Shown here: in pieces, positions 32,924 through 50,501 of the stretch | Position numbering within the stretch: position 1 is the stretch's first letter | Layout of the letters: each line of letters starts with the position of its first letter | From: Candidatus Woesebacteria bacterium | GTDB lineage: Bacteria > Patescibacteriota > Microgenomatia > UBA8517 | NCBI GenBank assembly: GCA_963716475.1 | Contig: OY970314.1 | Span: forward strand, 10,479 to 74,478 | Direction of reading: 5' to 3' | DNA length: 64,000 nucleotides | Position numbers and translations under genes: made by a program | The notes under the pieces: model-generated | What the model saw: only the letters and a program-made list of their open reading frames with translations | Database searches by the model: none | Told to the model about the DNA's origin: nothing

Positions 32924-35900
32924 CAGTTAAAACTGACGTCTGTATCAATTGAATTGGCAAAACCGACTACAAATTGCCCCGCCTGCTTACTCTTTACATA
33001 TAGTACGTTGTTCTCTGTCGAGGAGGTCGGGGTTACATAAATAAGCGTGTAGTCCGTAACTTTCGGATTTTTAATTGTGATCTCGCTCGTTCCTGCGGGA
33101 ATTACGGCTTGTCCGACTGTCGAATTTGTCGTAATGACACCGTCTATAATAGTACCCGACTCCGTTGCGTCAGACCCCGCAATCACAAGTTGGGGAGTGG
33201 AAACCGAGCCGAACTGGGCATTTCCGCCGGCGTTAACCGAGGCAACTTCCGAACCGGAACTGTTCTGGAGAGAAAGCAGGGCAGAGGCCGTTGCCGATTC
33301 TTGGTTGTCGGTTGCAGACAATGTTAAACCGGAAGATTTAATACGGCCGGCAACATACAAGTCTCCCGCGATATTAACATTTCCGTGAGTATCGATAGTG
33401 ACTAAGCCTGCCATGATTTCAAGAGGCGCCATGGCCAGAGATTGCAGCTTGAGCGGAGCGGAAAGAGTATCAATGCTATTTACTCCCGAGCCGATTACCA
33501 TATCAGGTCCGACCGTCAAGGCGTTTGTTACCGACAGGGAATTAAAGGCGGCTTGATTTGTAACATAAAGATCGGCAACAGCCAGTTCGTCAAGACTTGC
33601 GGAGTTGGTCGCGGTCAGGACATTCCAATTTGCCGCGTCTTTGAGAAGATTTTGGTCTGCCTGAACACTTGTCAAAAGTGCCTGGATGTCATCCAGACTC
33701 TTGGATTTTATTTCATCTGCGAACAAAGTTCCCGAAACGGATGCGTTACCGGCAAAAGCGGCGTTGCCCTGATTATCAATTGATGCCACCGCGCTCCCAC
33801 TGGCATTCTGGACTACAAATTGTCCTGAAGGAGTTGAGGTTGAACCAACCTGTACTGTTACATCAGTGCCGTCGGCAAGAGGGGAGATGAGTTTTGTTTG
33901 GATGTTGCCCGCGACGAGGCCCGACCTGATAAGTAGATTATCGACAGTTCCCTGGAAAGCCGTAAATCCTTGAGCTACCAAGTTTTGGGCAGTTACCGCG
34001 CCCGAGGTAACATTTTCAGCTACGAAATCAGTGGTTGTAACCACTCCCGCTTTAACGTTTGCCGCAACAACATTGGCAAACGCCCCGATTCTATCAATAA
34101 CAGTTCCACCGTTGGTCAATCGGTATGTACTGGCAGAATCAGTTGCATTGGCAACTGCCTGAATATTCACGTCTCCGATTGATGTAAGGTAGACATCCGG
34201 ATCATACCAGGAGACATTGACGAATGTACTGATTTTGTTGGTATCGGTGACTTGGGTGTAGTTTTCAAGTGCTTTACCGACAACCCGGCCGGGACGGGTA
34301 GCTTTCATAGCCACGCCGGGGGTTGAAGAGGAGGTTAGGAAATCGCCGATATGGATAGGACCATTTTCAAGAGAAACAGCAAGTGGTACACGGCCTGCAA
34401 GGGTAACAACAGCAGTTCCGGCACTTGGAGTGGCGCCACCACTGCCAAGGCTACTATAGCCCGATTTAAAAACGATATTCGGATTGGTGCTTACTATTCC
34501 TATGATGTTAGGATCATAGACTTGCTGGCTCTTGACGACAGTCTCATTTCCACTCCCAGTGGTAACAATTTCGCCGGCTGATAGCGATTCAGAAGTTGGA
34601 TATTCCTCGGCGAGATCGAAGGAAGTGTTATTGGTATCATAGCGGATAGTGCCTGCGACACCTGCAGGACAGGCAGTAACGTCTTGAACACAGACACTGC
34701 CCTTAACATGAAGCGTAGCATTTGGAGTAACCGTACCGATACCAACACTGCCGGCGTTATCAATGGCCATTTTAGCAGACCAGGTTGCGGCACTCCTTGT
34801 CCAAAACTGCATCTCCCCGTCCGTATCGCTGCCATAGCGTACCGCATAAACACCGCCAATGTAATTCGGGCCGGCAGTGTTATCCTGTATTGATAATGTG
34901 ATGCCGGTACCATGAGAATCTGCCATGTCCCCGGTGGTCTTTCCAACTATATCCAACGCGGCAGCAGCAGCAGCTGTGGTGGTAACAGTCCTTGTAAATC
35001 TGCCTGCATAAGTTCCACTGGTGGTGGCAGTTGCCTCGAGCGGAAAACTGGGCGTTGAATTCCCAAGGCCGAGGTTGCCGGCAAAGGAGTTTTTTTCAGT
35101 CCCTGACTGATAGATACCGAAGTTATTTGTAATTGTGCCGACGGTGACACTAGCAGGCAAATAGATAGCGTAGCCATTAGTTATGGTTCCCGTGGCGTTA
35201 TTGTTGGCTACTGCGACTTCAAGAGCATACATACTTGTTACGGCACCCGTTCCTTGTTTTATGGGGCTAAAAACCCCTCCAAGTATGGTGCCGATAGTCC
35301 CACTGGATTGGTTAGTCGGACTAAAGTAACCACCATAAAGAGTGGTAATCGTTCCCGTAGTTGTGTTTTGTGGGGCTACATCCAATCCAACCAGTGCAGC
35401 AAGTGTATTTCCCGTAGTAGCTGAGAAATCGGGTGTAATTAACTCTCCGTAATAAGTGCCTGTATTCGCGGTTGTTTGGGAGCCGTGTATGTAAGTATTC
35501 CAATAGTCAGAACCCGTACTGGCAGAGGTTCCGAGAACGTCAAACATGGCAGCGGGGGCTTCAGCAATACCGACCCCGCCGGTATCGCCATTGATTGTCA
35601 TTAAAGTTGAGAACGTCCCCGTTCCCGTTTGCTGCATGAATTGGTAACCCTGAATTCCCGCATTTGAGTTAGCACGGCGGCTGATGAGATCAAATTCTCC
35701 TTGGCCATTGGTCATGTTAAAAGTCAGTGCTCCTCCGAATCCGGTGGCAAGGGTCGAAAGATCGGCGGCTTGTTCATTATCATTAAAATCAAGTGCAAGA
35801 TAACCGTTATTCGAATTGCTGGAGTTAATATCGAAAGTTGCGTCAGGAGTTGTTGTCCCGATACCAACGATACCAGTAGCGGTAATGTTTAATAAAGAGC

Positions 35901-38900
35901 TCCCTGAAGATGATGCAACATTAAAAGGTGAAATTCCCGCCGTACCCGATACATCCAATTTACTCGTTGCGTTCATATTTCCAACTCCGACTCGGCCGCC
36001 AAAGTAGTTATGTTCACCGGTACCTGCCTGGTATAGACCGTAGTCGTTTGTAATCACGCCGGTTGTAGTACTGTCTTGGATTAGGAGACCATAACCGTAG
36101 TCTACTGTTGCCGAAGCGTTAGTGTTAATCACTCCGGCACGGACTCCAACCAGACTGCTTACTCCACCGGTTCCCTGGTCCATGGCGAGAAAAGAACCTG
36201 CTTCCAGATTAGTAACTGTTCCGCTTGATGTATTGGTTGGACTTGCCTTTACCCCGTAAAGACCGGAGATTGCACCAGTACTTGCATTGTACGGATCAGC
36301 TTCTAATCCGGCAAGTTGGGTAAGCGTATTCCCAGAGGCGGCAGAATAATCTGGGGTCATATATATTCCAATATAAGAGCCCGAATTAGCTGTTGTTTGG
36401 GCACCTAATATATGAATACCGAAATAATTACTACTGGCAAGGATTGAATCATGACTAATCGTAAGATAACCATCAGGTCCTGTCGTCCCAAGGCCGAGGT
36501 TGCCGGTTCCCAGATTAAACCAGGCATTTTGGTTATTGATTCCCGGTACATGGAAGTAAGCCGAGGCAGAGGCAGTATTGCCTACATTGAGTGCATATAA
36601 ATTGTTGGCGGGGGAAAGCGAGACACTGCCGGTTAATTGCCAGTAGTTTGTCATCCCTGCAGGACAGTGGTTACCAGCTGAATCACAGACTTGATTTGCC
36701 CCTTGGAAAAGTGCCTGTCCGTATATATTCCTGAACTCCAGGGATGAAGAAGTACCAATGTCAGAAGCATCGGTTGCACCGGGAATAACATTTCCTGCAT
36801 TTGTGATGACAAATTTCTTTGCCCCTGAAACAGAGGCTGAGAAAATATCTCCGCCTTTAGTCTGATCGACCATCAGGGCAGCCAGTCCGGGATTTCCTGC
36901 TGCCGGGTTTTGAATCAGCCAGCTGCCGTTTGTAAGAAGATTATAAGATCCGGCTGCGGTTGGGCTTGATGGGAAACTGATTGTCGTGGTTCCGTTGCTG
37001 CTTGTTATGATTCTGCTGTCAAGGAATAAAGTTCCATCCAGTTCCAATCCGCCTCCAATCAGAACATCCGAGGAAGCCGAAAGGCTATGGCCGGTAGTTG
37101 CTGACCCGCTAAATCTGGAATAAGCAACATTGGCAAGGTTACCAACTTGGAGTGAGCCTGTTGTCGATCGAATATCACCGGCTACGTCTAAGACTTCCGA
37201 AGGAGCTGTTGTCCCAATGCCGACACTGCCGGTTCCCAGATTAAACCAGGCATTATTGTTGGTAATTCCGGGTACATGGAAGGTGGTTGAGGCTGAGGTG
37301 CTGGCAGTATTTCCTACATTAAGTGCATATAAATTGTTTGCGGGGGAAAGGGAGACACCGCCGGTAAGTTGCCAGTAGTTAGTTCCACCTGCAGGACAGT
37401 TGTCACCGTTACTGTCACAGACCGCATAGTGTGATGCTCCCTCGTAGAAGGTGGTGGCATATACATTTCTCCAGCCGACGGTGGAAGTTCCCAGATCGCT
37501 TACATTATTGGTATTGGGTGCAACATATCCACCGGCTATGTGATTGCTGGGATCAAGTGTTATGTTACCTGTTGAGTTTCCACCGATTACCAATGGATTA
37601 AAGACAGTTGTCTGGATTGTTCCTGTTCCCGCCCTAAAGGCCAGAGTTCCGGAAACTGAAGCATTACCGGCAACGTCAAGCGTTACAATTGGCGTAGTTG
37701 TTCCAATACCGACGTTACCTGTGCCCAGGTTAAACCAGGCGTTTTGGTTATTGATTCCCGGTGCATGGAAGAAAGCCGAGGTGCTGGCAGTGTTACCCAC
37801 ATTAAGTGCATATAAATTGTTGGCGGGGGATAGCGAAACACCGCCGGTTAATTGCCAGTAGTTAGTAATTCCTGCAGGACAACCTGTACCGGTACTGTCA
37901 CAGACAGTGTTTCCTGCCTGGTAAAAGCTGGTTGCATATATATTCCTCCAGCGTAGGGCATTAGTTCCAAGATCGCTTACATTATTGGTATTGGCTGCCA
38001 CATATCCACCGGCTATGTGATTGCTCGGATCAAGGGTTATGTTACCTGTTGAGTTTCCACCGATTACCAATGGATTAAAGACAGTTGTCTGGATGGTTCC
38101 TGTTCCTGCCCTAAAGGCCAGGGTTCCTGAGACAGAGGCATTACCGGCAACATCAAGGGGAGCAGTGGGAGTAGATGTCCCTATTCCGACATTGCCTGCA
38201 AAGTAGTTATTTGAAGCTGTCTGGGAGTAGATTCCGTAGCTCCAGCCAGTCCCTATGTTAACTGCATACCCGGTTCCTGCCCCTGCTGTTATGCCGTCAA
38301 TCTTAATGGCATTCTCGGAAACACCGGATGTCGGAGTAAATCCTACCATTCTATATCCGTTCCAGGTACTACCGCTGCCTACGGTGTTGGAGGTTAAATC
38401 GATTCTTTCGGCACTGGCTTCAATTGCACCCGACCCGGCCACGTAGCTGATTTGTATACCACTTACGCCTGCGGATGTAACCCCGTAACCGGTATTGGCA
38501 ATATTGACCATATCGGCAGTCGGAACGGCTGAGGTTGCGACTTTGATCTGTCCCGTTACATCGGAAACGGTAAGGCCGGCTGCCCAGGTGTTGGATCCTG
38601 ATTTATATGCCAGGGTAAGTGGACCGTATTGGGATCTGATGGCATCTCCGTATCCTACCGTCAGAGTACCGCTCATTGAGGCATCTCCTGTTGCCGCAAA
38701 TACCTGGAACCTGGCAGAAGCAGTTGAGTTTCCTCCTACTGCCAGATCATAATCCGATGAATTCGCGGGAGCTAAAACATGACTGGCAAGTTGCCAGTAG
38801 TTTGTCATTCCGGCAGGACAACCTGTACCGGTACTGTCACAGACAGTGTTTCCTGCCTGGTAAAAGCTGGTTGCATATATATTCCTCCAGCGTAGGGCAT

Positions 38901-40848
38901 TAGTTCCAAGATCGCTTACATTATTGGTATTGGCTGCCACATATCCGCCGGCTATGTGATTGCTCGGATCAAGTGTGATATTACCTGTTGAGTTTCCACC
39001 GATTACCAATGGATTAAAGACAGTTGTCTGGATTGTTCCTGTTCCTGCCCTAAAGGCCAGAGTTCCTGAGAGGGAAGCGGTTCCTGCTATATCTAGGACC
39101 GCTGTTGGAGTAGTTGTCTCAATCCCAATGTTGCTTGCAAAGTAAGCTCCACCCGCACTAGTGATATAAGATACTGCATTAGTGGTATTTGAAGCACGAT
39201 CATAAAGTGTGAATGGGTAAGTGAACGACGGGTCGTGTGTTTGGTCGTTATTAAGCCCCAGCGCGATACTTCCGGTCTGGTTAATCCCAACACCGACTGC
39301 GGTTGCAGCCCTATTTCCAAACCGGACGAATCCTGAAGAGTTGTGTGGAGCGATTGTCAAATCACCATATGTATTATCTGCGTTAATGATATTATATCCG
39401 TTGGTATTTATCTGTAATCCGTTTCCGCCAGTCGAAATCTGAGATACATCTTGGTTTGCATTGCCCGTGTCAGGATTCCAACCAAAGTTAATATTATTGG
39501 TAAGAGCACCCTTATCTAATATGTTCATACCAATTTCGGAGTTGTTATTACTTAGAGAATCCATATCAGCGTAAATTTGGGCTGCTTCGGTTGCTGCCGG
39601 ATAAGCATCTGTTCTTTGTATTACAAAACCTAATGCCGGGCCAAATCCATTAGAGGGACCAGTATCCGAAACAGCTAACGTTGTAATTTCAGTAGGTGTG
39701 GTGCTGTGAACGGCATATTTTACAGACAAAGGTGTAGATGGTGCCGTTGTCCCAATGCCGAGGTTACCGGTTCCCAGGTTAAACCAGGCATTTTGGTTAT
39801 TGATTCCCGGTACATGGAAGTAAGCCGAGGTGCTGGCGGTGTTACCTACATTAAGTGCATATAAATTGTTAGCGGGGGAAAGAGAGACACCGCCTGTTAG
39901 TTGCCAGTAGTTGGTCATTCCGGCAGGACAGTGGTTACCACCGCTGTCACAGACTTGGTAGGCTCCCTGGAACACCGCAGTTGCTGACACGCTGGCAATG
40001 TTGTAGAGACTGTCTCCTGCAAACGAAATAAAATTACTTGCAGCATCAATTGTTATATCTCCCGCCGTATTGGAGAGAGTTGATGTTGCGCCCAGGAGTT
40101 TCAGAGTGCCGTCGTTTGCCAAAACCATCCTTGTTGTTCCCGATGCTGATGCAGTAAGTATATCTTGTGATTCATACTGATCTACCAGGAATGCCGCTTT
40201 CCCGGTCGCGTTGGCTGAGGGTGCAACGACAGAGAGTTTTGAAAATGGAGAGGATGTCCCTATACCTATGTTCCCGAAGCCGTTGGGATTAAGGAGAACA
40301 TTTCCGGTTGTGTTGTAGGTTGAGGAGTTACCGATGGTTATGCTGTTGCGGAGAGTACTTGAAATATTACCGTTTCCGTCAATGAAGGTGGCAACACCGG
40401 CTGTTGAACCGGAGATACTTGCTGTCGGAGTATTTTTCAGAACGTTAATGAATGCAAACTTGGCACTGGCTGTGGCACTGTTCCCGATTAAAAGATCCAT
40501 AGTGGTATTACCCGGATATATGGTTCCGAGGCCAAGGGCCCAGTAGTTAACTCCGGTAGCAGGACAGTTGTCTCCGTTACTGTTACAGACCGCATAGTGT
40601 GATGCTCCCTCGTAGAAGGTGGTGGCATATACATTTCTCCAAAGTAGAGAGGAAGTTCCAAGATCAGATACGTTAGTAGTATTGGCTGCCACATATCCAC
40701 CGGCTATGTGATTGCTCGGATCAAGTGTAATGTTACCTGTTGAGTTTCCACCGATTACCAATGGATTAAAGACAGTTGTCTGGATGGTTCCTGTTCCTGC
40801 CCTAAAGGCCAGGGTTCCGGAGACAGAGGCCATTACCGGCAACATCAA
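32902..40848 (-). CDS. Giant repetitive surface protein, 2648-aa ORF; probably the C-terminal continuation of the 40802..49882 ORF
   Basis: It has no signal peptide or TM of its own and begins mid-repeat ('..ASVSGTLAFRAGTGTIQTTVFNPL..'). It is built from ~250-aa modules containing 'NYWQL..', 'GNVGIGTTTP..LDVAGNASVSG' (phage tail-fibre-repeat-like). The C-terminal region 'FADEIKSKSLDDIQALL..' has a distinct tail. Confidence 0.75.
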   Translation of the reverse strand: MMLPVMASVSGTLAFRAGTGTIQTTVFNPLVIGGNSTGNITLDPSNHIAGGYVAANTTNVSDLGTSSLLWRNVYATTFYEGASHYAVCNSNGDNCPATGVNYWALGLGTIYPGNTTMDLLIGNSATASAKFAFINVLKNTPTASISGSTAGVATFIDGNGNISSTLRNSITIGNSSTYNTTGNVLLNPNGFGNIGIGTSSPFSKLSVVAPSANATGKAAFLVDQYESQDILTASASGTTRMVLANDGTLKLLGATSTLSNTAGDITIDAASNFISFAGDSLYNIASVSATAVFQGAYQVCDSGGNHCPAGMTNYWQLTGGVSLSPANNLYALNVGNTASTSAYFHVPGINNQNAWFNLGTGNLGIGTTAPSTPLSVKYAVHSTTPTEITTLAVSDTGPSNGFGPALGFVIQRTDAYPAATEAAQIYADMDSLSNNNSEIGMNILDKGALTNNINFGWNPDTGNANQDVSQISTGGNGLQINTNGYNIINADNTYGDLTIAPHNSSGFVRFGNRAATAVGVGINQTGSIALGLNNDQTHDPSFTYPFTLYDRASNTTNAVSYITSAGGAYFASNIGIETTTPTAVLDIAGTASLSGTLAFRAGTGTIQTTVFNPLVIGGNSTGNITLDPSNHIAGGYVAANTNNVSDLGTNALRWRNIYATSFYQAGNTVCDSTGTGCPAGMTNYWQLASHVLAPANSSDYDLAVGGNSTASARFQVFAATGDASMSGTLTVGYGDAIRSQYGPLTLAYKSGSNTWAAGLTVSDVTGQIKVATSAVPTADMVNIANTGYGVTSAGVSGIQISYVAGSGAIEASAERIDLTSNTVGSGSTWNGYRMVGFTPTSGVSENAIKIDGITAGAGTGYAVNIGTGWSYGIYSQTASNNYFAGNVGIGTSTPTAPLDVAGNASVSGTLAFRAGTGTIQTTVFNPLVIGGNSTGNITLDPSNHIAGGYVAANTNNVSDLGTNALRWRNIYATSFYQAGNTVCDSTGTGCPAGITNYWQLTGGVSLSPANNLYALNVGNTASTSAFFHAPGINNQNAWFNLGTGNVGIGTTTPIVTLDVAGNASVSGTLAFRAGTGTIQTTVFNPLVIGGNSTGNITLDPSNHIAGGYVAPNTNNVSDLGTSTVGWRNVYATTFYEGASHYAVCDSNGDNCPAGGTNYWQLTGGVSLSPANNLYALNVGNTASTSASTTFHVPGITNNNAWFNLGTGSVGIGTTAPSEVLDVAGDIRSTTGSLQVGNLANVAYSRFSGSATTGHSLSASSDVLIGGGLELDGTLFLDSRIITSSNGTTTISFPSSPTAAGSYNLLTNGSWLIQNPAAGNPGLAALMVDQTKGGDIFSASVSGAKKFVITNAGNVIPGATDASDIGTSSSLEFRNIYGQALFQGANQVCDSAGNHCPAGMTNYWQLTGSVSLSPANNLYALNVGNTASASAYFHVPGINNQNAWFNLGTGNLGLGTTGPDGYLTISHDSILASSNYFGIHILGAQTTANSGSYIGIYMTPDYSAASGNTLTQLAGLEADPYNASTGAISGLYGVKASPTNTSSGTVTNLEAGSFLAMDQGTGGVSSLVGVRAGVINTNASATVDYGYGLLIQDSTTTGVITNDYGLYQAGTGEHNYFGGRVGVGNMNATSKLDVSGTAGISPFNVASSSGSSLLNITATGIVGIGTTTPDATFDINSSNSNNGYLALDFNDNEQAADLSTLATGFGGALTFNMTNGQGEFDLISRRANSNAGIQGYQFMQQTGTGTFSTLMTINGDTGGVGIAEAPAAMFDVLGTSASTGSDYWNTYIHGSQTTANTGTYYGELITPDFSATTGNTLAALVGLDVAPQNTTTGTITTLYGGYFSPTNQSSGTIGTILGGVFSPIKQGTGAVTSMYALEVAVANNNATGTITNGYAIYLPASVTVGTITNNFGIYQSGTEKNSFAGNLGLGNSTPSFPLEATATTSGTYAGRFTRTVTTTAAAAAALDIVGKTTGDMADSHGTGITLSIQDNTAGPNYIGGVYAVRYGSDTDGEMQFWTRSAATWSAKMAIDNAGSVGIGTVTPNATLHVKGSVCVQDVTACPAGVAGTIRYDTNNTSFDLAEEYPTSESLSAGEIVTTGSGNETVVKSQQVYDPNIIGIVSTNPNIVFKSGYSSLGSGGATPSAGTAVVTLAGRVPLAVSLENGPIHIGDFLTSSSTPGVAMKATRPGRVVGKALENYTQVTDTNKISTFVNVSWYDPDVYLTSIGDVNIQAVANATDSASTYRLTNGGTVIDRIGAFANVVAANVKAGVVTTTDFVAENVTSGAVTAQNLVAQGFTAFQGTVDNLLIRSGLVAGNIQTKLISPLADGTDVTVQVGSTSTPSGQFVVQNASGSAVASIDNQGNAAFAGNASVSGTLFADEIKSKSLDDIQALLTSVQADQNLLKDAANWNVLTATNSASLDELAVADLYVTNQAAFNSLSVTNALTVGPDMVIGSGVNSIDTLSAPLKLQSLAMAPLEIMAGLVTIDTHGNVNIAGDLYVAGRIKSSGLTLSATDNQESATASALLSLQNSSGSEVASVNAGGNAQFGSVSTPQLVIAGSDATESGTIIDGVITTNSTVGQAVIPAGTSEITIKNPKVTDYTLIYVTPTSSTENNVLYVKSKQAGQFVVGFANSIDTDVSFNWWIVQVQ
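37960..38765. repeat. ~0.8-kb near-identical intragenic repeat, copy 1 (coordinates approximate)
   Basis: Identical antisense ORF peptides at 38255..38446 = 40947..41138 = 43845..44036 and 38495..38752 = 41187..41444. Visual alignment of 38041-38200 with 40741-40900 shows identity. Confidence 0.7.
40113..40551. repeat. ~0.44-kb block repeated ~8 kb upstream at ~48088-48526
   Basis: The antisense ORF at 40334..40546 is identical to 48309..48521. The corresponding ~150 aa ('NYWALGLGTIYPGNTTMDLLIGNSATASAKF...DQYESQDILTASASG') are identical in both giant ORFs. Confidence 0.7.
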
Positions 40849-41455
40849 GGGGAGCAGTGGGAGAAGTTGTCCCTATTCCGACATTGCCTGCAAAGTAGTT
40901 ATTTGAAGCTGTCTGGGAGTAGATTCCGTAGCTCCAGCCAGTCCCTATGTTAACTGCATACCCGGTTCCTGCCCCTGCTGTTATGCCGTCAATCTTAATG
41001 GCATTCTCGGAAACACCGGATGTCGGAGTAAATCCTACCATTCTATATCCGTTCCAGGTACTGCCGCTGCCTACGGTGTTGGAGGTTAAATCGATTCTTT
41101 CGGCACTGGCTTCAATTGCACCCGACCCGGCCACGTAGCTGATTTGTATACCACTTACGCCTGCGGATGTAACCCCGTAACCGGTATTGGCAATATTGAC
41201 CATATCGGCAGTCGGAACGGCTGAGGTTGCGACTTTGATCTGTCCCGTTACATCGGAAACGGTAAGGCCGGCTGCCCAGGTGTTGGATCCTGATTTATAT
41301 GCCAGGGTAAGTGGACCGTATTGGGATCTGATGGCATCTCCGTATCCTACCGTCAGAGTACCGCTCATTGAGGCATCTCCTGTTGCCGCAAATACCTGGA
41401 ACCTGGCAGAAGCAGTTGAGTTTCCTCCTACTGCCAGATCATAATCCGATGAATT
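40660..41455. repeat. ~0.8-kb near-identical intragenic repeat, copy 2; spans the ORF junction and carries the extra C
   Basis: Same evidence as copy 1. Offset is 2692 nt from copy 1. Confidence 0.7.
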
Positions 41456-44400
41456 TGCAGGAGCCAGTACATGATTGGCAAGTTGCCAGTAGTTTATTCC
41501 GCTACAGCCGGATACACCTCCACCCGCATCACAGACCTGGTTTGCTCCCTGATATATGGTTGTTCCTTTGATATTTGTGCCATATATATTCCTCCAAAGT
41601 AATGAAGATGTTCCAAGATCAGATACGTTAGTAGTATTGGCTGCCACATACCCGCCGGCTATGTGATTGCTCGGATCAAGTGTAATGTTGCCTGTTGAGT
41701 TTCCACCGATTACCAACGGATTAAAGACAGTTGTCTGGATTGTTCCTGTTCCTGCCCTAAAGGCCAGGGTTCCTGAGACAGAGGCATTACCGGCAACATC
41801 CAATAGGGCAGTGGGGGAGGTTGTACCTATACCAACGTTGCCAGTACCTTTAAAAGTCACATTTCTGGTAAATGATGAGCTGGAACCGTATCCGAAAGAA
41901 ATATCGCCGCTGGAATCATAGGCGAATTCCTGAAGCAAACTGCTTTGTATACCGAATCCATAACCGGTTCCAGAACCGGCATCATAAAGAGCGATTTTGT
42001 TACCCAAAGTGGTTCCAAGTGAAAGTGGAAAGCTTGGGTTCGTTGTCCCAATACCAACATTGCCCGTTGCGGCTACATTTAATATTGAAGTTCCTGAAGA
42101 TGAGGCAACATTGAGCGGAGAAACCCCTGCCGTACCTAGGACATCCAGTTTACTTGCTGGGTTATTTATCCCAATGCCGACTTTACCACCTGTTATTCCC
42201 AAATCGCCGCTACTATTAACACCAAAATCTACATTGTTGAAATACGTTCCTTCTGTTAACCGTAATGCAATAGAGGAACTGGTTGTAATTCGGGCAGCCA
42301 AAGCGCTACCTGCTTCAACCTGGAGTTTATAGACAGGTGCTGTTGTCCCAATACCGATGTTGCCGGTTGAAGCCACGTTTAATAATGATCCGCCCGATGA
42401 TGATGCAACATTAAATGGAGAAACTCCTACTAAACCTAGAATGTCCAATCTGCTGACTGGTGTTGTTCCGATGCCAATATTTCCACCGGTAGGATTTAAT
42501 ACCAAGTCACCAAAAACTGAACCCTCGGCCGCTATTGATTGAATGGCGTTAACTCCGGATGTGTCCGCACTTCTCCCCATGCGTAGATAAGTCCCTCCTG
42601 TGTCGGTATTACCAACGGCAAATGGCCAATAATATCCGCTTGCAGACGATCCCAGAGGGCGCACCTGCAAAGAAGTGGTTGGGCTTGTTGTCCCAATACC
42701 CAGGTCGCCAGTCCCTAAGTTAAACCAGGCATTATTGTTGGTAATTCCAGGTACATGGAAGGTGGTTGAGGCTGAAGTGCTGGCGGTATTGCCTATATTA
42801 AGTGCATATAAATTGTTGGCGGGGGAAAGGGAGACACCGCCTGTTAGTTGCCAGTAGTTGGTTCCGCCGCAGCCGGATACACCTCCACCCGCATCACAGA
42901 CCTGGTTTACTCCCTGGTATAGTTTCTGTGCATATATGTTCCTGAATTCCAAAGAGGAGGAAGTACCAAGGTCTATAGCATTATTGGCGCCGGGAACAAC
43001 ATTACCTGCATTAGTGGAAGGAGAGAGGATAATATTACCCGTGTTATTTCCTCCTATGGTTAAAGGACTAAAGGCTGTTGTTTGAATGTATCCTGTCCCT
43101 GCCCTGAATGCCAGAGTTCCTGAGACTGAAGCATTGCCATTGACATCAAGTGCTACTGATGGAGTAGTTGTTCCAATTCCAACATATCCGTTTATATCAG
43201 TTAGAGTTAATCCTGCAACAAAGGAATTTGAACCCGATTTGTAACGTAAAGTAAGAGGACCGTAAGCGGGTTGAATACCGTTTCCATAGCCAATAGTTAG
43301 TGATCCGGACATACTGGCATCTCCTGTTGCCGCAAATACCTGGAACCTGGCAGAAGCAGTTGAGTTTCCTCCTACTGCCAGATCATAATCCGATGAATTT
43401 GCAGGAGCTAAAACATGGTTGGCAAGTTGCCAGTAGTTTATTCCGCTACAGCCGGATACACCTCCGCCTGCATCACAGACCTGGTTTGCTCCCTGATATA
43501 TGGTTGTTCCTTTGATATTTGTGCCATATATATTCCTCCAAAGTAATGAAGATGTTCCAAGATCAGATACGTTAGTAGTATTGGCTGCCACATACCCGCC
43601 GGCTATGTGATTGCTCGGATCAAGTGTAATGTTGCCTGTTGAGTTTCCACCGATTACCAACGGATTAAAGACAGTTGTCTGGATTGTTCCTGTTCCTGCC
43701 CTAAAGGCCAGAGTTCCGGAAACTGAAGCCGCTCCGGCAACATCAAGGGGAGCAGTGGGTGAAGTTGTCCCTATTCCGACATTGCCTGCAAAGTAGTTAT
43801 TTGAAGCTGTCTGGGAGTAGATTCCGTAGCTCCAGCCAGTCCCTATGTTAACTGCATACCCGGTTCCTGCCCCTGCTGTTATGCCGTCAATCTTAATGGC
43901 ATTCTCGGAAACACCGGACGTCGGGGTAAATCCTACCATTCTATATCCGTTCCAGGTACTGCCGCTGCCTACGGTGTTGGAGGTTAAATCGATTCTTTCG
44001 GCACTGGCTTCAATTGCACCTGAACCTGCCACGTAGGTGAGCTGTATGGCACTACTTCCTGCCGTGGTAACCGGGTAACCCGTGTTGCTAACGGTAAACA
44101 CATCAGTAGTCGGAGCAACAGAGGCTGCAATTTTGACTGCTCCAGTTACATCGGCAATAGTTAACCCGGGTGACCAGGTATTGGATCCTGATTTATAATT
44201 CAAGGTGAGTGGGCCGTATGCACTTTGTATGGCTTGTCCGTTGGCAATCGTCAGAGTACCGCTCATTGAGGCATTACCTGTTGCTGCAAATACCTGGAAC
44301 CTGGCAGAAGCAGTTGAGTTTCCTCCTACTGCCAGATCATAATCCGATGAATTTGCAGGAGCTAAAACATGGTTGGCAAGTTGCCAGTAGTTTATTCCGC

Positions 44401-47400
44401 TACAGCCTGATACACCTCCGCCTGCATCACAGACCTGGTTTACGCCCTGATATAGTTTCTGTGCATATATGTTCCTGAATTCCAGAGAAGAGGAAGTACC
44501 TAAATCAGTTCTGTCTGTGATACCCGGAGAGACATTTCCTCCTGTTATATTATTGGAAGGAGCAAGGACAATGTTGCCTGTTGTTGTTCCCCCAATGGTT
44601 AAAGGACTAAAGGTGTTTGTCTGGATGGATGATGCTCCTGCATGGAATAAAAGACCGCTTACGGATGCATTTCCGTAAACATCCAGGTTGACACCTGGAA
44701 CACCTCCTATACCAAGCCAACCTTGTATAAAAACATTGCCATTGGTAAAATAGCCTGCCCAATTCGTAGTCCCGCCTGTGGCGGTACCGTAGACGCCATA
44801 ATTTGTTGCGGATCCTTGTGCGTTCCCCTCGACCCCATAGACATTACTATTGCCTTTGGCGACGCCGAGTACGCCAATATTGGATCCTAAAGTACTGAGA
44901 GCATTGCCGGTGATAGCGGTTTGGCTGCTGTCATTGGTGGTGGTGATTAAACCAGCGCCGTAACCGATAGCTGCTAATATTTCTAATTTTGCTGTTGGTG
45001 CCGTTGTTCCAATACCAACATTGCCAAGCGAAGCCACGGGATTAAGAAGTATATTTCCGGTGGTGTCGTAGGTTGATGAATTTCCAAGAACTAGATTGTT
45101 ACGGTTTGTTGTGGATATATTTCCGTTGCCGTCAATAAAAGTAGCTACCCCTGCAGTTGTTCCTGCGATACTGGCTGTGGGTGTTCCTCCTGTGGGAATA
45201 CCTGTGAAAGCAAACTTGGCACTGGTGGTGGCTGTTGCCGCCGTGGCACCAAAGAAAACATTAACAGTATTATTAAGTGGGTAAATGGATCCTAGGGATT
45301 GTCCCCAGATGGTAGCTCCTGCGGGGCATCCTGTGCCTCCCGCATCACAGACCTGATTTGCTCCCTGATATATGGTTGTTCCTTTGATATTTGTGCCATA
45401 TATATTCCTCCAAAGTAGGGAAGAAGTTCCAAGGTCGCTTACATTTGTGGTATTTGGTGCCACATATCCGCCGGCGATGTGATTGCTCGGATCGAGTGTG
45501 ATATTACCTGTTGAATTTCCACCAATGACCAGTGGATTAAAAGCAGTGGTTTGGATAGTTGGTGAACCGGCTGTTCTAAAGGTTAGTGATCCCGATACTG
45601 AGGCTGCTCCGGCCACATCAAGCGTGGAGGTTGGAGCAGTTGTACCGATTCCGACCCTGGAGTTATTGGTATCAAGTGACATAAGAGTGGATTCAAAAGA
45701 AAGGGCATTGACGGTAGCATTTTTAAGATCAAGGTTTGGTGTGCTGTTACTGAGTGTCCAGGTATTGGGCCAGATGGTTAAGCTGTCACCCGTGGCATCT
45801 CCAAGTGTGGTATTACCCTGGATTGTTCCTGCATTTAGAATGGCATTCCCTGAAGAATCAATAGAGTAGGTAGTTCCGTTAAAGTAAAGGTATCCTGCCC
45901 CGGTTGTTAAGTTGGCTCCGTTGGCAGTTAGGGCAGTTGAACCTCTGGAGTTAATGATGACATTACCTGTGGAAGTGCCTCCGAGTGTCAGGTCCTGGGC
46001 TTTGGTTGTTGATAAGACTCCGTTACCCGTCAGGTAAGTGGCATACCCTGCGGCACTTCCCGCAATACTGGCTGTGGGAGTTCCACCGGTATTTACCCCT
46101 GTGAAAGCAAACTTGGCAGAGGAGGTGGCAGTTGAACCGATGAGAAGATCAACGCTGCTATTCTTGGGATATATGGCTCCGGCGGCTACGCTCCAGAGAT
46201 CGGTAGCTGCCGCACAGTTTCCAGAAGAATCACAAACTGCATTGTTACCGGCTCCCTGGTAGAATGACGTGGCATATATATTCCTCCAGAGCAGGGAAGA
46301 AGTACCAAGGTCAGATACATTTGTGGTATTTGGTGCAACATATCCGCCGGCGATGTGGTTAGAAGGATCGAGCGTGATATTACCGGTTGAATTTCCACCA
46401 ATGACCAGTGGATTAAAAGCAGTGGTTTGGATGGTTGGTGAACCGGCTGTTCTAAAGGTTAGTGATCCTGATACTGAGGCTGCTCCGGCTACATCAAGTG
46501 TGGAGGTTGGAGCAGTTGTACCGATTCCGACCCTGCCTGTTCCCAAATTAAACCAAGCATCCGCATTATTGGTTCCGGGTACGTGGAAGTAGGCTGAGGT
46601 ACTGGCAGTGTTACCTACATTAAATGCATATGTTGAGTTAGCAGGGGATAGTGAGACCCCGCCGGTTAGTTGCCAGTAGTTAGTTCCGAGTGTGGCAGGA
46701 TCACTCCAAGTATTGACTCCTCCTGCAGCTGAAGTTAGGAGATATCCTGAGGCACCGGCTACTCCTCCCGGAAGTAGGGCATTGGAGTACGAGACGTTGC
46801 CGATTCCTGCTAAAGCATTACCACTACCTACATTCAGGGAAGCAGACATTGTGGCGTAACCTGTTAAATTGAAGTTTCCATTTACATCCAGTAATTGTGA
46901 TGGGGAGGTGGTACCAATACCTACGTTGCCTGCGTTTGTTATTCTCATCTTTTCTGTTAATGCTCCTCCGGAAGAATTAGAAGTTAAAAATTGCATATAA
47001 CCGGCGGCATTTCCATCCGAGGCGTTTTCCTTTCTGCCAGCTAGACCTGCGAATGGAGTTGAAACTCCGCCGGAAGAGTAAATACCACCAATAGAAATTT
47101 GGCCGCCCTTGTCTATTGCATAAGCGTCCGTCGAAGAAACATAAACATTTCCTTTTGAGTTAAGAGCCTGGTTTGCACCGGCGGCATGTAATATGGCTAG
47201 GGGAGACGTTGTCCCAATTCCCACACTCCCGGCCGCATCAATAATAACCTTTGTTGTAGAGCTATTGACAAACTCAGCGAGAGTCCCGCTTGCAGCGGCT
47301 GAGTTAACTTCTACGTGTAGTCCTACGATTGTAGAGGAAAGGTTTTGAGCTCCGGCTTTAAACCAGCCTGCATATGCTTTATCTCCGGCGACGTCTCCCG

Positions 47401-49882
47401 TACCTCGGGCAGTACCAATAACCCCGTAATTTATTCCTGTCCCAGTGCCAAGAGTTCTTCCTTCTGTACCCAATATGGCGAAATTTGTTCCCGACGGTTC
47501 ATATCCCGTAGATGCACCCTGGACATACAGTTTTGCTGTCGGAGCGGTGACTCCAACTCCCACATTTCCAGTTCCCAGATTAAACCAGGCATTATTGTTG
47601 GTAATTCCGGGTACATGGAAGGTGGTTGAGGCTGAAGTGCTGGCGGTATTGCCTATATTAAGTGCATATAAATTATTGGCAGGGGAAAGGGAGACCCCAC
47701 CTGTTAGTTGCCAGTAGTTGGTACAACCTGAGCCGCTACTGTCGCACACCTGGTTTACTCCCTGATATAGTTTCTGCCCATATATGTTTCTGAACTCCAG
47801 GGAAGAGGAAGTACCAAGATCTGTTTTATCTGTGGAGCCCGGGGAGACATTACCTCCCAAAACATTATTTAAAGGAGCGAGGACGATATTGCCCGTTGTA
47901 GTTCCCCCGATTGTTAACAGATTTGAGGCAGTGGTTTGAACAGACCTTGATCCTCCTGCAAGTGTTAAATCACCCGAAGCTGAAGCACTTCCTGTTACAA
48001 CCAATAGGCCGCTTGCCGGGGTGATCGTGATATTTCCGGAAAGGTTTGAGATGCTCGAAGAGGCATTGTACAGATTTAAAGTTCCGTCATTGGACAGGGT
48101 CAATCTGGTTGAGCCCGATGCTGATGCAGTAAGTATATCTTGTGATTCATACTGATCTACCAGGAATGCCGCTTTCCCGGTCGCGTTGGCTGAGGGTGCA
48201 ACAACAGAGAGTTTTGAAAATGGAGAGGATGTCCCTATACCTATGTTCCCGAAGCCGTTGGGATTAAGGAGAACATTTCCGGTTGTGTTGTAGGTTGAGG
48301 AGTTACCGATGGTTATGCTATTGCGGAGAGTGCTTGAAATGTTACCGTTTCCGTCAATGAAGGTGGCAACACCGGCTGTTGAACCGGAGATACTTGCTGT
48401 CGGAGTATTTTTCAGAACGTTAATGAATGCAAACTTGGCACTGGCTGTGGCACTATTCCCGATTAAAAGATCCATAGTGGTATTACCCGGATATATGGTT
48501 CCGAGGCCAAGGGCCCAGTAGTTGGTTCCAAGGCTTGAAGGGCTTGTCCAAGTAGGCGGTCCGCTATTATTGTGCGTTGTTAAAATATTACCTTCAGTTC
48601 CTGCACCAAGTATTCCACCCATAGTAGTGGTGCTATCGTAGTAGGGAATTGCATACTGAGTGGCCGACGAGTTATTTGCTCCTGTCCCGCCGTATTGTAT
48701 GGGGACAACGCCGCCGTGCCAGGTTCCGCCTGTTATTGTTCCACCGGAGACCGCCAAGCCGTTAATTGTTCCCGATGCTGTTGCATTTCCAACTGCATCA
48801 ACAACAAATCTGTTTGCTGGTGTTGCCCCTGCCTGTAATTGTAGGAGATTGTAACCCGTGGCATTACTGGCGACGGCTCCGTAATAAAGAGATTTTGAGG
48901 TGAGGTTGGCGTCTGTCGCGTTCACAAATCCTCCTGCGCTGCCTCCCGGAGCAGCCCCCGAAAAGTTAAAATTAGCAGATCCGGTTCCATCTGGTGCGAT
49001 AGTGATTGATCCATTAGAACTTGTAGGAGTGCTTATTGTCAGAACTTGTCCTTCAATTGCAAATGTGCCCGATGTTGACTGAATTTTGGGAGAGCCTGCT
49101 GCAATGACCATCTGCCCGGAGTTATTCAATACGGGAACGGTATTGATTGTCGCGGATGAACTGGCCGGATAGCCTTGCAGAGTTTCGGAGTTCAAAGCAT
49201 AGGCAACGGTTGCGATCTGGACTCTGGGAATGGCCTCGGCATCGGCTGCAACAGTAACTCCCAGCCAGACAGCCGCGTTATCCGAAAAAACGCTGCTTGT
49301 AAGTTCTGTTCCGCATCCGTTTCCGAGGAGGATAGAGAAGACTCCATCAATGTCCGGAGAAACGGAACATGAACCTGAATTCCAAAGTGTGCTGCCACCG
49401 CTGGAATTATCGTATAGTTTGAATACAACACCAGTAGCAGTTGTTATCGGATTTCCAAATTGATTTGTCAGCCTGCCCTGGAATGATAGGTAACGGTTCG
49501 GACGGTTCAAGGCAGTAAGAGCGAACGGGGAAGTGGCATTCTTAAAAAACTGATTATATATTCCCAGGCCGACCAGAGATGTAAGGATTAAGGCTATCGC
49601 AATATTAAGATAGTTAACTCCAGGTATGCTTCGATACCTATTGTACCAATTGTAAAGCCTGATTTTCCCCGCAGGTTTTGCGGAGATTTTCCTTTCCTTT
49701 TGCTTTTGAGCCGAGAGAAGATCTCCAAGATTTGTATCTACAATGCCTTCACTTTTAGCCCAGTCAAGAAACTTGCCGATGGATATTGATTTTCTTTTAA
49801 CTGTTGCGGGCGAGAAGTGCCCGATAAGTTCTTCCTGATATTTTCTTATTAAATCCGGTGTGATATTGGGCAGGGTAGCCAT
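40802..49882 (-). CDS. Giant repetitive surface protein, 3026-aa ORF: cytoplasmic SAM-like half-domain, one TM, then tail-fibre-like repeat modules
   Basis: N-terminus 'ITPDLIRKYQEELIGHFSPATVKRKSISIGKFLDWAKSEG' (integrase core-binding-like). TM 'YLNIAIALILTSLVGLGIY'. Then repeats identical in part to the 2648-aa ORF. It ends '..DVAGNGLCLRNPGL*' exactly where the sibling repeats read '..DVAGNASVSGTLAFRAG'. Confidence 0.8.
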   Translation of the reverse strand: MATLPNITPDLIRKYQEELIGHFSPATVKRKSISIGKFLDWAKSEGIVDTNLGDLLSAQKQKERKISAKPAGKIRLYNWYNRYRSIPGVNYLNIAIALILTSLVGLGIYNQFFKNATSPFALTALNRPNRYLSFQGRLTNQFGNPITTATGVVFKLYDNSSGGSTLWNSGSCSVSPDIDGVFSILLGNGCGTELTSSVFSDNAAVWLGVTVAADAEAIPRVQIATVAYALNSETLQGYPASSSATINTVPVLNNSGQMVIAAGSPKIQSTSGTFAIEGQVLTISTPTSSNGSITIAPDGTGSANFNFSGAAPGGSAGGFVNATDANLTSKSLYYGAVASNATGYNLLQLQAGATPANRFVVDAVGNATASGTINGLAVSGGTITGGTWHGGVVPIQYGGTGANNSSATQYAIPYYDSTTTMGGILGAGTEGNILTTHNNSGPPTWTSPSSLGTNYWALGLGTIYPGNTTMDLLIGNSATASAKFAFINVLKNTPTASISGSTAGVATFIDGNGNISSTLRNSITIGNSSTYNTTGNVLLNPNGFGNIGIGTSSPFSKLSVVAPSANATGKAAFLVDQYESQDILTASASGSTRLTLSNDGTLNLYNASSSISNLSGNITITPASGLLVVTGSASASGDLTLAGGSRSVQTTASNLLTIGGTTTGNIVLAPLNNVLGGNVSPGSTDKTDLGTSSSLEFRNIYGQKLYQGVNQVCDSSGSGCTNYWQLTGGVSLSPANNLYALNIGNTASTSASTTFHVPGITNNNAWFNLGTGNVGVGVTAPTAKLYVQGASTGYEPSGTNFAILGTEGRTLGTGTGINYGVIGTARGTGDVAGDKAYAGWFKAGAQNLSSTIVGLHVEVNSAAASGTLAEFVNSSTTKVIIDAAGSVGIGTTSPLAILHAAGANQALNSKGNVYVSSTDAYAIDKGGQISIGGIYSSGGVSTPFAGLAGRKENASDGNAAGYMQFLTSNSSGGALTEKMRITNAGNVGIGTTSPSQLLDVNGNFNLTGYATMSASLNVGSGNALAGIGNVSYSNALLPGGVAGASGYLLTSAAGGVNTWSDPATLGTNYWQLTGGVSLSPANSTYAFNVGNTASTSAYFHVPGTNNADAWFNLGTGRVGIGTTAPTSTLDVAGAASVSGSLTFRTAGSPTIQTTAFNPLVIGGNSTGNITLDPSNHIAGGYVAPNTTNVSDLGTSSLLWRNIYATSFYQGAGNNAVCDSSGNCAAATDLWSVAAGAIYPKNSSVDLLIGSTATSSAKFAFTGVNTGGTPTASIAGSAAGYATYLTGNGVLSTTKAQDLTLGGTSTGNVIINSRGSTALTANGANLTTGAGYLYFNGTTYSIDSSGNAILNAGTIQGNTTLGDATGDSLTIWPNTWTLSNSTPNLDLKNATVNALSFESTLMSLDTNNSRVGIGTTAPTSTLDVAGAASVSGSLTFRTAGSPTIQTTAFNPLVIGGNSTGNITLDPSNHIAGGYVAPNTTNVSDLGTSSLLWRNIYGTNIKGTTIYQGANQVCDAGGTGCPAGATIWGQSLGSIYPLNNTVNVFFGATAATATTSAKFAFTGIPTGGTPTASIAGTTAGVATFIDGNGNISTTNRNNLVLGNSSTYDTTGNILLNPVASLGNVGIGTTAPTAKLEILAAIGYGAGLITTTNDSSQTAITGNALSTLGSNIGVLGVAKGNSNVYGVEGNAQGSATNYGVYGTATGGTTNWAGYFTNGNVFIQGWLGIGGVPGVNLDVYGNASVSGLLFHAGASSIQTNTFSPLTIGGTTTGNIVLAPSNNITGGNVSPGITDRTDLGTSSSLEFRNIYAQKLYQGVNQVCDAGGGVSGCSGINYWQLANHVLAPANSSDYDLAVGGNSTASARFQVFAATGNASMSGTLTIANGQAIQSAYGPLTLNYKSGSNTWSPGLTIADVTGAVKIAASVAPTTDVFTVSNTGYPVTTAGSSAIQLTYVAGSGAIEASAERIDLTSNTVGSGSTWNGYRMVGFTPTSGVSENAIKIDGITAGAGTGYAVNIGTGWSYGIYSQTASNNYFAGNVGIGTTSPTAPLDVAGAASVSGTLAFRAGTGTIQTTVFNPLVIGGNSTGNITLDPSNHIAGGYVAANTTNVSDLGTSSLLWRNIYGTNIKGTTIYQGANQVCDAGGGVSGCSGINYWQLANHVLAPANSSDYDLAVGGNSTASARFQVFAATGDASMSGSLTIGYGNGIQPAYGPLTLRYKSGSNSFVAGLTLTDINGYVGIGTTTPSVALDVNGNASVSGTLAFRAGTGYIQTTAFSPLTIGGNNTGNIILSPSTNAGNVVPGANNAIDLGTSSSLEFRNIYAQKLYQGVNQVCDAGGGVSGCGGTNYWQLTGGVSLSPANNLYALNIGNTASTSASTTFHVPGITNNNAWFNLGTGDLGIGTTSPTTSLQVRPLGSSASGYYWPFAVGNTDTGGTYLRMGRSADTSGVNAIQSIAAEGSVFGDLVLNPTGGNIGIGTTPVSRLDILGLVGVSPFNVASSSGGSLLNVASTGNIGIGTTAPVYKLQVEAGSALAARITTSSSIALRLTEGTYFNNVDFGVNSSGDLGITGGKVGIGINNPASKLDVLGTAGVSPLNVASSSGTSILNVAATGNVGIGTTNPSFPLSLGTTLGNKIALYDAGSGTGYGFGIQSSLLQEFAYDSSGDISFGYGSSSSFTRNVTFKGTGNVGIGTTSPTALLDVAGNASVSGTLAFRAGTGTIQTTVFNPLVIGGNSTGNITLDPSNHIAGGYVAANTTNVSDLGTSSLLWRNIYGTNIKGTTIYQGANQVCDAGGGVSGCSGINYWQLANHVLAPANSSDYDLAVGGNSTASARFQVFAATGDASMSGTLTVGYGDAIRSQYGPLTLAYKSGSNTWAAGLTVSDVTGQIKVATSAVPTADMVNIANTGYGVTSAGVSGIQISYVAGSGAIEASAERIDLTSNTVGSGSTWNGYRMVGFTPTSGVSENAIKIDGITAGAGTGYAVNIGTGWSYGIYSQTASNNYFAGNVGIGTTSPTAPLDVAGNGLCLRNPGL
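43560..44050. repeat. Near-identical intragenic repeat, copy 3 (partial; coordinates approximate)
   Basis: 43845..44036 is identical to 38255..38446, and 43611..43796 is near-identical to 38021..38206. Confidence 0.6.
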
Positions 49883-49885
49883 AAG

Positions 49886-50431
49886 TTAATTTTTTGATTT
49901 GTTTACCAAATTCTGATTTGGCCAAGTTTTGCTTATTTGTTTCTCAGATTCGAGCCAAAGAAGAAAATGTCTTATATCAGAAAGATAGTTTTTGATAGTG
50001 TTAGGAGAGACTTTCTCCCGCTCAAGCTGCCGCCTATAATCACTAAATATTGGATTAATACTAACTCCCTTGACAGGATTTGAACTGACGTTCTCGATGC
50101 CTTCGGTGAAATCATGATCGATAATGTGGCTTCCAAGTAGGAATCTTGACAGGTGCCTTAGGGTTGAAAGTCTGCGGTTTGTGGTCTTAGCCGGAACAGA
50201 ATTTCCAATCATGAAGTTTCTATATTCCTGAGCGAGCTCGGTGTTTAGAAAGGGGACAGTCTCAGTTAAAGATTCAATGTAGCTTCCCAATGATCTGATC
50301 TTCAATATAGCCCAGGCAAGGAAATGAACCAGATCGCTCCTGTAATTTTTATGGGATCGCGGGGAAAGACCTAGAGAGTTGAGGTAAATAATAAATTCTT
50401 TTCTGATTAAATCTGATTTTTGGTTGGGCAT
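49886..50431 (-). CDS. Tandem integrase-type SAM-like (core-binding) domain protein without catalytic domain (181 aa)
   Basis: First ~105 aa form a full Phage_integrase-N/XerD-N-like fold ('FIIYLNSLGLSPRSHKNYRSDLVHFLAWAI....TTNRRLSTLRHLSRFLL'). A second half-domain follows ('YRRQLEREKVSPNTIKNYLSDIRHFLLWLE'). No Tyr-recombinase catalytic region is present. The stop lies 2 codons in-frame before the giant ORF's ATG. Confidence 0.6.
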   Translation of the reverse strand: MPNQKSDLIRKEFIIYLNSLGLSPRSHKNYRSDLVHFLAWAILKIRSLGSYIESLTETVPFLNTELAQEYRNFMIGNSVPAKTTNRRLSTLRHLSRFLLGSHIIDHDFTEGIENVSSNPVKGVSINPIFSDYRRQLEREKVSPNTIKNYLSDIRHFLLWLESEKQISKTWPNQNLVNKSKN

Positions 50432-50466
50432 TAAGTTAAGGCTAGATTATACTAAATTATACTAAT

Positions 50467-50501
50467 TAGACTATTATTAAAGCATTTAATAAAGCTGTCA
50501 A
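50467..50501 (-). promoter_or_regulatory. Candidate promoter of the giant-protein operon (TTGACA-17-AATAAT on the minus strand, plus two TATAAT boxes downstream)
   Basis: Reverse complement reads 'cTTGACAgctttattaaatgctttAATAATagtctaattagTATAATttagTATAATctagcc', 30-70 nt upstream of the 50431 start. Confidence 0.35.

Follow-up and report, generated by a model that had tools for sequence, protein, structure and literature searches.

In a 64,000-nucleotide stretch of the genome of a Candidatus Woesebacteria bacterium (GenBank assembly GCA_963716475.1, contig OY970314.1, positions 10,479 to 74,478 of the forward strand; this whole stretch is called the window here, and its numbering is used throughout), a small gene for a protein of 181 amino acids (aa) lies directly upstream of a giant open reading frame (ORF) of 3026 aa. 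Judged by sequence comparison, this locus is an old and conserved gene fission whose two genes are parts of one ancestral gene, and we consider it probable that their products re-associate to rebuild the domain that was cut, rather than being joined by read-through of the stop codon between them. The ancestral gene would have encoded a single type-II membrane protein with two cytoplasmic integrase-type core-binding domains, a basic linker, a transmembrane (TM) helix, an immunoglobulin (Ig)-like domain, and an outer fibre of several thousand residues. It appears to be intact in many relatives, and in a Woesebacteria-type clade domain 2 would have been severed at the loop that links helices B and C, so that the small protein retains domain 1 and helices A and B while the giant starts at its own ATG with helices C and D. 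Both genes would be co-transcribed from a conserved promoter, with the giant translated by re-initiation or translational coupling, as their 3-nt spacing suggests. The half-domains would then re-associate non-covalently, as the evolutionary pattern described below suggests, docking domain 1 on the cytoplasmic face of the fibre's membrane anchor and letting the split pair work like the fused protein.

The domain content of the locus is far beyond chance; the shared frame of its two ORFs is not. On the minus strand, which carries all of its features, the small gene (49886..50431; ATG start, 181 codons, and a TAA) encodes a soluble, basic protein (isoelectric point 9.8), in which Pfam finds one complete core-binding (SAM-like) domain, Phage_int_SAM_1 (PF02899), at residues 12-99 (50135..50398; E = 2e-13, 50.8 bits versus a cut-off of 22.3, over positions 3-80 of the 83-position profile) and a partial match to Phage_int_SAM_4 at residues 131-164 that covers profile positions 4-36 of 85 only. 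The partial match marks the first half of domain 2, helices A and B (residues ~127-164; 49940..50053), and an unconserved tail of 17-20 aa follows it. The XerC and XerD models of NCBIfam match the small ORF over N-terminal positions 2-96 only, with equivalog scores of 38-39 bits versus cut-offs of 330-335, and Pfam found no catalytic domain (PF00589, with its R-K-H-R-H/W-Y active site) in either ORF of the pair or in the three ORFs that come next. An initial annotation of this DNA had described 1.5 core-binding domains without a catalytic region, and these searches bear it out.

The giant ORF (40802..49882) begins at an ATG (49880-49882) that lies in frame with the small gene, and its coordinates and frame agree with that annotation. 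Between the two lie the TAA at 49886-49888 and one TTA codon, a 3-nt spacer; this junction (49883..49888) falls in the loop between helices B and C. The small protein ends in ...LVNKSKN, the giant, if it starts from its own ATG, would begin with MATLPNITPDLIR or ATLPNITPDLIR, and the junction reads KSKN-X-LMATLP. Helices C and D, the second half of domain 2, are found at giant residues 4-46 (49745..49873), which when scored alone match SAM_1 weakly (E = 0.097; profile positions 40-83 of 83). Because this is the second half of the SAM_1 profile, the giant holds the complementary half of the domain and not a further copy of the same half, as had initially been claimed. When the two translations are joined, a single SAM_4 or SAM_5 match crosses the stop (residues 131-214 and 129-235, respectively), and a profile of the core-binding module aligns over the junction with a whole recombinase N-domain from the PDB. 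Among PDB sequences, 9i5v chain 14 matches this profile best; it is a chain of 401 aa labelled 'Ribosome-associated translation inhibitor RaiA', its residues 6-110 align as a recombinase core-binding domain, and the RaiA label looks odd.

An AlphaFold2 model of P0003, a naturally fused relative, has a mean predicted local distance difference test (pLDDT) score of 85.9 and consists of two helical bundles. Its domain 2 is built from helices 127-138, 143-159, 168-181, and 184-203, the first two being the equivalents of helices A and B in the small protein, and the split site corresponds to loop 160-167, whose 8 residues connect the second and third of them. The top Foldseek matches of this model in the PDB are almost all tyrosine-recombinase N-domains or excised integrase N-domains, among them those of Brujita Int, lambda Int, XerD, XerA, Cre, and IntI, with a probability of ~1.0 and E values of only ~0.06-0.3 because the domain is small. 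In a model of the first 330 residues of the giant, a helical hairpin (9-22 and 25-44; pLDDT ~83) is followed by a linker, the TM helix at residues 89-113, and the strands of a beta-sandwich (132-223; pLDDT ~85). The linker (residues 47-88; 49619-49744) is rich in K and R, and by the positive-inside rule the N-terminus of the giant is predicted to be cytoplasmic. The single TM helix (49544..49618), already noted in the initial annotation behind the half-domain, thus lies past a basic linker, and the placement of the module on the cytoplasmic side of a giant surface protein's membrane anchor, likewise proposed there, is what these predictions favour. The membrane-proximal beta-sandwich (49208..49495), with the signature LSFQGRLT...QIATVAYALN.ETLQG, is kept in all family members and has only generic Ig/macroglobulin-like fold matches. 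The giant was also considered as a pilin and rejected as such, as the archaeal-pilin fold match was weak (E = 3e-3, root mean square deviation 16 Å) and there was no prepilin-type leader.

Relatives in which the same protein is encoded by one ORF carry much of the argument. With the joined sequence of the small and giant translations as query, we found single-ORF relatives that cover 97-99% of it (P0004, P0008, P0011, and P0018) as well as fused fragments (P0003 and P0006); P0003, P0004, P0008, P0011, and P0018 each combine in one ORF both SAM-like domains in full with a TM helix and the same ectodomain. Closer relatives from Woesebacteria (P0001, P0002, and P0005; 65-74% identity) are split exactly like the window locus. 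The halves lie in different frames in loci L002 and L003, and in frame in L004, with a stop and two codons between them. A module-profile scan of genomes representing the 185,579 species of GTDB then found 118 related stretches, of which 80 loci were returned. Those with a named lineage belong to Microgenomates-type bacteria within the candidate phyla radiation (CPR), namely, Woesebacteria, Collierbacteria, Beckwithbacteria, Levyibacteriota, and Roizmanbacteria, while about half of the 80 stand under generic labels, such as 'uncultured Gammaproteobacteria', which we take as mislabels.

Loci were called fused or split with hidden Markov models (HMMs) for each half of domain 2, run on stop-to-stop ORFs, with the second half sought up to 1.5 kb downstream. 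By this measure 26 loci are fused and 35-36 are split at the same inter-helix loop. Every split locus has an ATG 1-10 codons before helix C and the conserved start M-x-x-LP-x-I-[TS]-P-[DE]-L. Only in L032 is the small ORF truncated, by the contig end (97 aa); elsewhere it is complete, with 157-220 aa (median, 170). In all loci scored as split, the second half lies next to the first, on its downstream side and on its strand, within the 1.5 kb downstream to which the screen was limited. Their spacing ranges from a 14-nt overlap to +26 nt in most split loci, including ATGA-type overlaps, and is 90-1010 nt in the rest; TAA, TAG, and TGA are all used as stops at the junction.

These loci bear directly on the idea that programmed read-through or recoding of the in-frame TAA yields one fusion protein, the two ORFs being an artefact of standard translation. 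In the window the frames do coincide, only the TAA and one codon separate the ORFs, and the TAA sits within a domain that fused relatives keep whole. The split orthologues, however, are in frame at just the rate expected by chance (10 of 35 versus an expected 1/3; P(X>=10 | p=1/3) = 0.78), their junction stops vary, some pairs overlap out of frame, and others are 346-1010 nt apart with other genes in between, whereas an ATG is found at the same spot in every one of them. TAA also terminates 18 of the 31 window genes, including those for the housekeeping proteins S1, RadA, Rho, and LeuRS, and the sole tRNA found in the window is tRNA-Ala(CGC). We therefore regard programmed read-through as highly improbable, and the shared frame across the window TAA is, as far as the comparison of these sequences goes, a coincidence. 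The initial annotation had spoken of a 'historical or read-through fusion' and had allowed a one-in-three chance for the shared frame; the historical part stands, as the 26 fused loci show the protein to have been one gene once, which we read as fission, and so does the coincidence, while the read-through part fails, with out-of-frame orthologues and independent starts in most split loci. Its judgement that an alternative genetic code is very unlikely holds as well, given how many genes here end in TAA, and the single-ORF homologues for which it suggested a search exist.

Much the same comparison argues against a recent nonsense mutation, or a sequencing or assembly error, that broke one gene and left a pseudogene or an artefact. 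A frameshift of such a kind does probably occur downstream in this gene, within a repeat at ~40802-40848. Yet 35-36 genomes assembled independently of one another, and six more metagenome contigs, share the break at this loop, their small ORFs (160-190 aa) are intact, their downstream parts have a start codon, and both halves are still under constraint, so that an accident of this type is scarcely credible as an explanation of the junction.

The constraint on the two halves is seen in the mean pairwise identities across 28 split loci. The half-domains are 55% (helices A and B) and 46% (helices C and D) identical, compared with 44% for the intact domain 1, whereas the tail behind helix B and the linker behind helix D have drifted to 10% and 14%, respectively. 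That the half-domains are conserved while the segments adjoining them drift indicates that both halves are under selection. In a crude neighbour-joining (NJ) tree of the module, a large clade that includes the window's split locus has the fused loci L005, L012, and L021 nested inside it, and a Collierbacteria-type clade is uniformly fused; parsimony on this tree requires at least five changes between the fused and split states. Close relatives alternate, with L004/P0012 split and P0004, P0007, and L012 fused, and their junction peptides (L004, ...NNTRTNQAQT*(6 nt)MPNLPKITPEL; P0004, ...NDNNRIKQAQITPEAL; P0007, ...FISPGLPKITPELL) suggest that small deletions and insertions may toggle the state. 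Since a complete domain cannot arise by chance from two genes, the fused state would be ancestral and the split state derived, and from the repeated interconversion we infer that the two forms are functionally equivalent and hence that the two polypeptides assemble.

A different outcome of the same fission would be divergence, in which the small protein became a free cytoplasmic DNA-binding regulator acting through domain 1 and the half-domains are non-interacting leftovers, or pair with themselves or with other partners. The small protein is indeed basic with one complete domain, and unrelated genes can separate the halves, which implies that tight translational coupling is not essential. We nevertheless think that such divergence is unlikely, because the half-domains match or exceed the complete domain in conservation while the segments beside them drift, and because adjacency, order, and strand are kept in every split locus within the 1.5-kb downstream screen. 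Moreover, fused forms recur inside the split clade, which is hard to square with diverged functions, and a two-helix fragment is unlikely to be stable alone.

The genes that separate the halves are observations in their own right. A complete, unrelated ORF lies between the halves in five loci and is of a four-helix-bundle type in L001, L022, L029, and L040 and NYN-like in L044. In L001 it encodes 166 aa (4616-5116) and matches PF05635, the '23S rRNA intervening-sequence' four-helix bundle; the insert of L022 (4488-4880) is similar by eye, those of L029 (4479-5126) and L040 (2998-3576) are longer ORFs that look like four-helix bundles, and that of L044 (4035-4598) is NYN-like. A degraded remnant of an inserted gene lies between the halves in L018 (2910-3089), and L001 has a second PF05635 gene in another nearby intergenic gap. 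These cases suggest that such small inserted genes spread into intergenic gaps in CPR genomes.

Expression of the pair appears to start upstream of the small gene. A sigma-70-type promoter (TTGACA-17 nt-AATAAT; 50473..50501) that is near consensus, with 11 of 12 consensus positions, precedes it, and the TTGACA-17-TAATAAT block is conserved in most related loci. No promoter-like site was found directly upstream of the giant ATG, and the nearest minus-strand match (49510-49483) lies inside the giant ORF. With a promoter only upstream of the small gene and a gap of 3 nt between the genes, co-transcription with coupled translation is the simplest reading. Shine-Dalgarno sequences are nearly absent from the starts of the 31 window genes. 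A TATAAT-like box is found 15-25 nt before the ATG of the genes for RadA, the sortase, a 490-aa protein, and the small SAM protein, a sign that leaders in this organism may be very short or lacking.

The promoter and leader are themselves conserved. A block of ~75 nt before the small-gene ATG has 64-88% nucleotide identity to relatives, compared with 57-71% for the coding sequence, and in the divergent intergenic region (50432-50802) this conservation concerns especially 50446-50501. Between the promoter and the ATG it holds two perfect tandem TAGTATAAT units, 10 nt apart (50446..50464), and GTATAATNNNGTATAAT occurs once in the window. The Woesebacteria-type block can be written as AGTCTAAT-T-AGTATAAT-nnn-GTATAAT-nn-AGCCTTA, with tandem units of ~10 bp, and the Collierbacteria-type block as CGTCTAAT-AT-CGTCTAAT, which stands 200-300 nt upstream, ahead of an apparent coding sequence that abuts the gene. 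A tandem unit is present on the coding strand within 400 nt upstream in 37 of 62 related loci, and the density of the units is 52 matches in ~25 kb of upstream DNA versus 12 in the remaining ~875 kb. In a metagenome collection, each of the six exact matches to the element immediately precedes an orthologous split-type gene for a protein of 171-172 aa. Of further upstream motifs in the divergent intergenic region, TTACCGCA occurs eight times in the window versus 1.9 expected, mostly inside genes; GCGTGAAAT is not enriched in the window. Rfam found no RNA family in the region.

In the absence of a recombinase catalytic domain the module cannot recombine DNA, and its most likely role would be nucleic-acid binding at the membrane. 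The most conserved residues of the module are the core-binding motifs of recombinases, S.NTIKNY.SD..F in helix B and T.NRRLS.LR in helix D, and the cytoplasmic parts of the proteins are strongly basic. In complexes of Cre, lambda Int, and Xer proteins, the helices with these motifs face the DNA.

Some points weigh against the fission and re-association that we propose. Because most window genes have no Shine-Dalgarno sequence, a ribosome-binding site offers no argument for independent initiation of the giant. Low-level read-through of the window TAA may occur. The direction and number of the putative fissions and re-fusions depend on a crude NJ tree of a module of ~250 aa, and the DNA-binding role of the module is putative. 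The last point also favours an alternative in which the module, on the cytoplasmic side, serves protein-protein docking or assists the export of a very long secreted fibre and is not a nucleic-acid binder; it always lies N-terminal to the TM anchor of large exported proteins, and its conserved neighbours are uncharacterised membrane or surface proteins. Against it stand the conservation of the canonical recombinase motifs in helices B and D, the strongly basic cytoplasmic parts, and the highly conserved tandem-repeat DNA element that accompanies the gene, and we judge docking to be the less likely function, if one to be kept in mind.

If the module does bind nucleic acid, one candidate for its DNA target would be the tandem-repeat element of its own promoter; such binding is speculative. 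The repeats could be an operator for the core-binding domains, or they could be stacked -10 boxes and the A/U-rich leader of a strong promoter. The specific proposal that the tandem core-binding domains form a membrane-tethered, sequence-specific binder of the ~10-bp direct repeats of their own promoter (AGTCTAAT or TAGTATAAT, twice; CGTCTAAT, twice) is accordingly put forward as a doubtful one. Were it true, the state of the giant fibre could be coupled to its own transcription, or the locus could be held at the membrane during synthesis and export of a protein of >5000 aa, and the split in domain 2 would make the DNA-binding half detachable, a reversible, non-covalent tether of ToxR-like type made from a recombinase domain. 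A relation between the number of repeats and the number of domains was considered and rejected, as a tandem pair is also present in P0014 (locus L086), a member with one domain.

The module shares its fold and signature motifs with the N-domains of tyrosine recombinases (XerC/XerD, XerA, lambda Int, and Cre; PF02899, PF13495, and PF13102). In contrast to them, it is tandem, has no catalytic domain at its locus, and connects to a TM helix and a giant fibre either covalently or by way of a split domain; by its predicted domain content it is not a recombinase. Stand-alone integrase-like N-domains of known structure (PDB 2kd1, 2kiw, 2kob, 2khv, 3nrw, and 3lys), all among our fold matches, are likewise core-binding domains without a catalytic part, although 3nrw, 3lys, and 2kiw are excised N-terminal fragments of full integrases, and we know of no such structural-genomics domain that is membrane-tethered, tandem, or split.

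Split genes as such are familiar from the protein genes of Nanoarchaeum equitans and from rpoC1/rpoC2 in cyanobacteria. Here, too, one ancestral ORF would have given rise to two polypeptides that must cooperate while fused orthologues survive; unlike in those cases, the cut lies inside a helical domain of ~80 residues, the parts are adjacent and apparently co-transcribed, and fused and split forms alternate within one class. The predicted topology, a cytoplasmic N-domain, a single TM helix, and an extracytoplasmic domain, is that of the membrane-tethered one-component regulators ToxR, TcpP, and CadC. However, ToxR and CadC use an OmpR-type winged helix and the module a recombinase core-binding domain (only Phage_int_SAM families in Pfam), their outer part is a small sensor and that of the module is a multi-kiloresidue fibre, and the tandem repeats at 50446-50464, with their counterparts in relatives, are a candidate site for any promoter control by the module.

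The family to which this pair belongs is large. Searched with a profile, 1.84 billion cluster representatives yielded 877 protein clusters at E <= 1e-30, many of 1500-6300 aa. The two window proteins themselves are unnamed singletons. Among the best 144 new representatives, 34 start with helices C and D only, at residue 3-4, as split-type giants do, about 60 have two full domains, and about 20-30 have one. In their sources, family members are named 'site-specific integrase' or 'site-specific recombinase XerD', and no catalytic domain was found with Pfam or NCBIfam in those examined. Searches of the literature on SAM-like or integrase domains in Microgenomates, on giant proteins of CPR bacteria, and on core-binding proteins without a catalytic domain returned no description of the family. 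Judged by these searches, it is large, undescribed, and mis-annotated, and it is confined, where lineages are named, to Microgenomates-type CPR bacteria.

If its members were counted as integrases, the number of mobile elements in CPR genomes would be overestimated. The family also offers a natural example of a small helical domain that was divided within a loop and has persisted as two genes in many species, apparently with re-fusions, which makes it useful for studies of domain complementation and of gene fission and fusion in reduced genomes. It ties a cytoplasmic domain of a nucleic-acid-binding type to the largest surface proteins of Microgenomates, which makes it of interest for the surface biology and host contact of these organisms, and if the module binds the promoter repeats, a new type of transmembrane signalling or autoregulation would be at hand.

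The remainder of the giant protein is a repetitive fibre in which G, T, S, A, N, and D make up 59% of the residues and NVGIGTTSPT..LDV units recur. The 3026-aa ORF ends within a repeat unit (...GIGTTSPTAPLDVAG|NGLCLRNPGL*), and a 2648-aa ORF (32902..40848, minus strand) resumes that unit in another frame (ASVSGTLAFRAGTGTIQTT...) and carries the fibre repeat on. The two ORFs are probably one fibre gene of ~5.66 kaa divided by a frameshift near 40802-40848, and the frameshift, at 40780-40860, is either real or an assembly error in the repeats. The fibre of both ORFs had no match in Pfam or NCBIfam. In the one-domain locus L086 (8237-9769), the fibre gene looks broken into several ORFs, one of which ends in Peptidase_S74, an intramolecular chaperone of tail fibres and endosialidases; by analogy, this hints that some fibres of the family may mature like phage tail fibres.

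The window as a whole is chromosomal CPR DNA with genes for S1, RadA, a sortase, Rho, LeuRS, ComEA, and ComEC. The position of the locus next to comEA/comEC had been called unusual in the initial annotation, yet in 12-23 related loci, including that of the fused P0008 gene (L005), LeuRS-ComEA-ComEC lies within ~4 kb of the module gene in either direction. As this proximity recurs in relatives, it is conserved synteny and not evidence for a role in DNA uptake. The stretch 50803-58853 holds genes with no or weak Pfam matches, beginning with a Big_1 protein and continuing with proteins of 312, 490, 358, 501, 306, 238, and 226 aa, of which the 358-aa protein has a weak WxL-interacting PGBD-like match. 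Without the 226-aa gene, this block lies beside the module gene in 26-44 related loci and may be a conserved surface-apparatus cluster tied to the fibre.

At the start of the window, an rRNA region (16-3114) comprises a complete 23S rRNA gene (16-2948) with no large insertion and a 5S rRNA gene (2998-3114); the ORF at 1853..2344 lies within the 23S rRNA gene and was rejected as spurious. Finally, comEC (61771-63752) consists of two overlapping ORFs in different frames, one of 368 aa with the Competence domain and one of 348 aa with Lactamase_B, and in L005 a Competence-domain gene of 352 aa precedes a separate gene of 317 aa without a Pfam match, so that comEC may be another conserved split gene.

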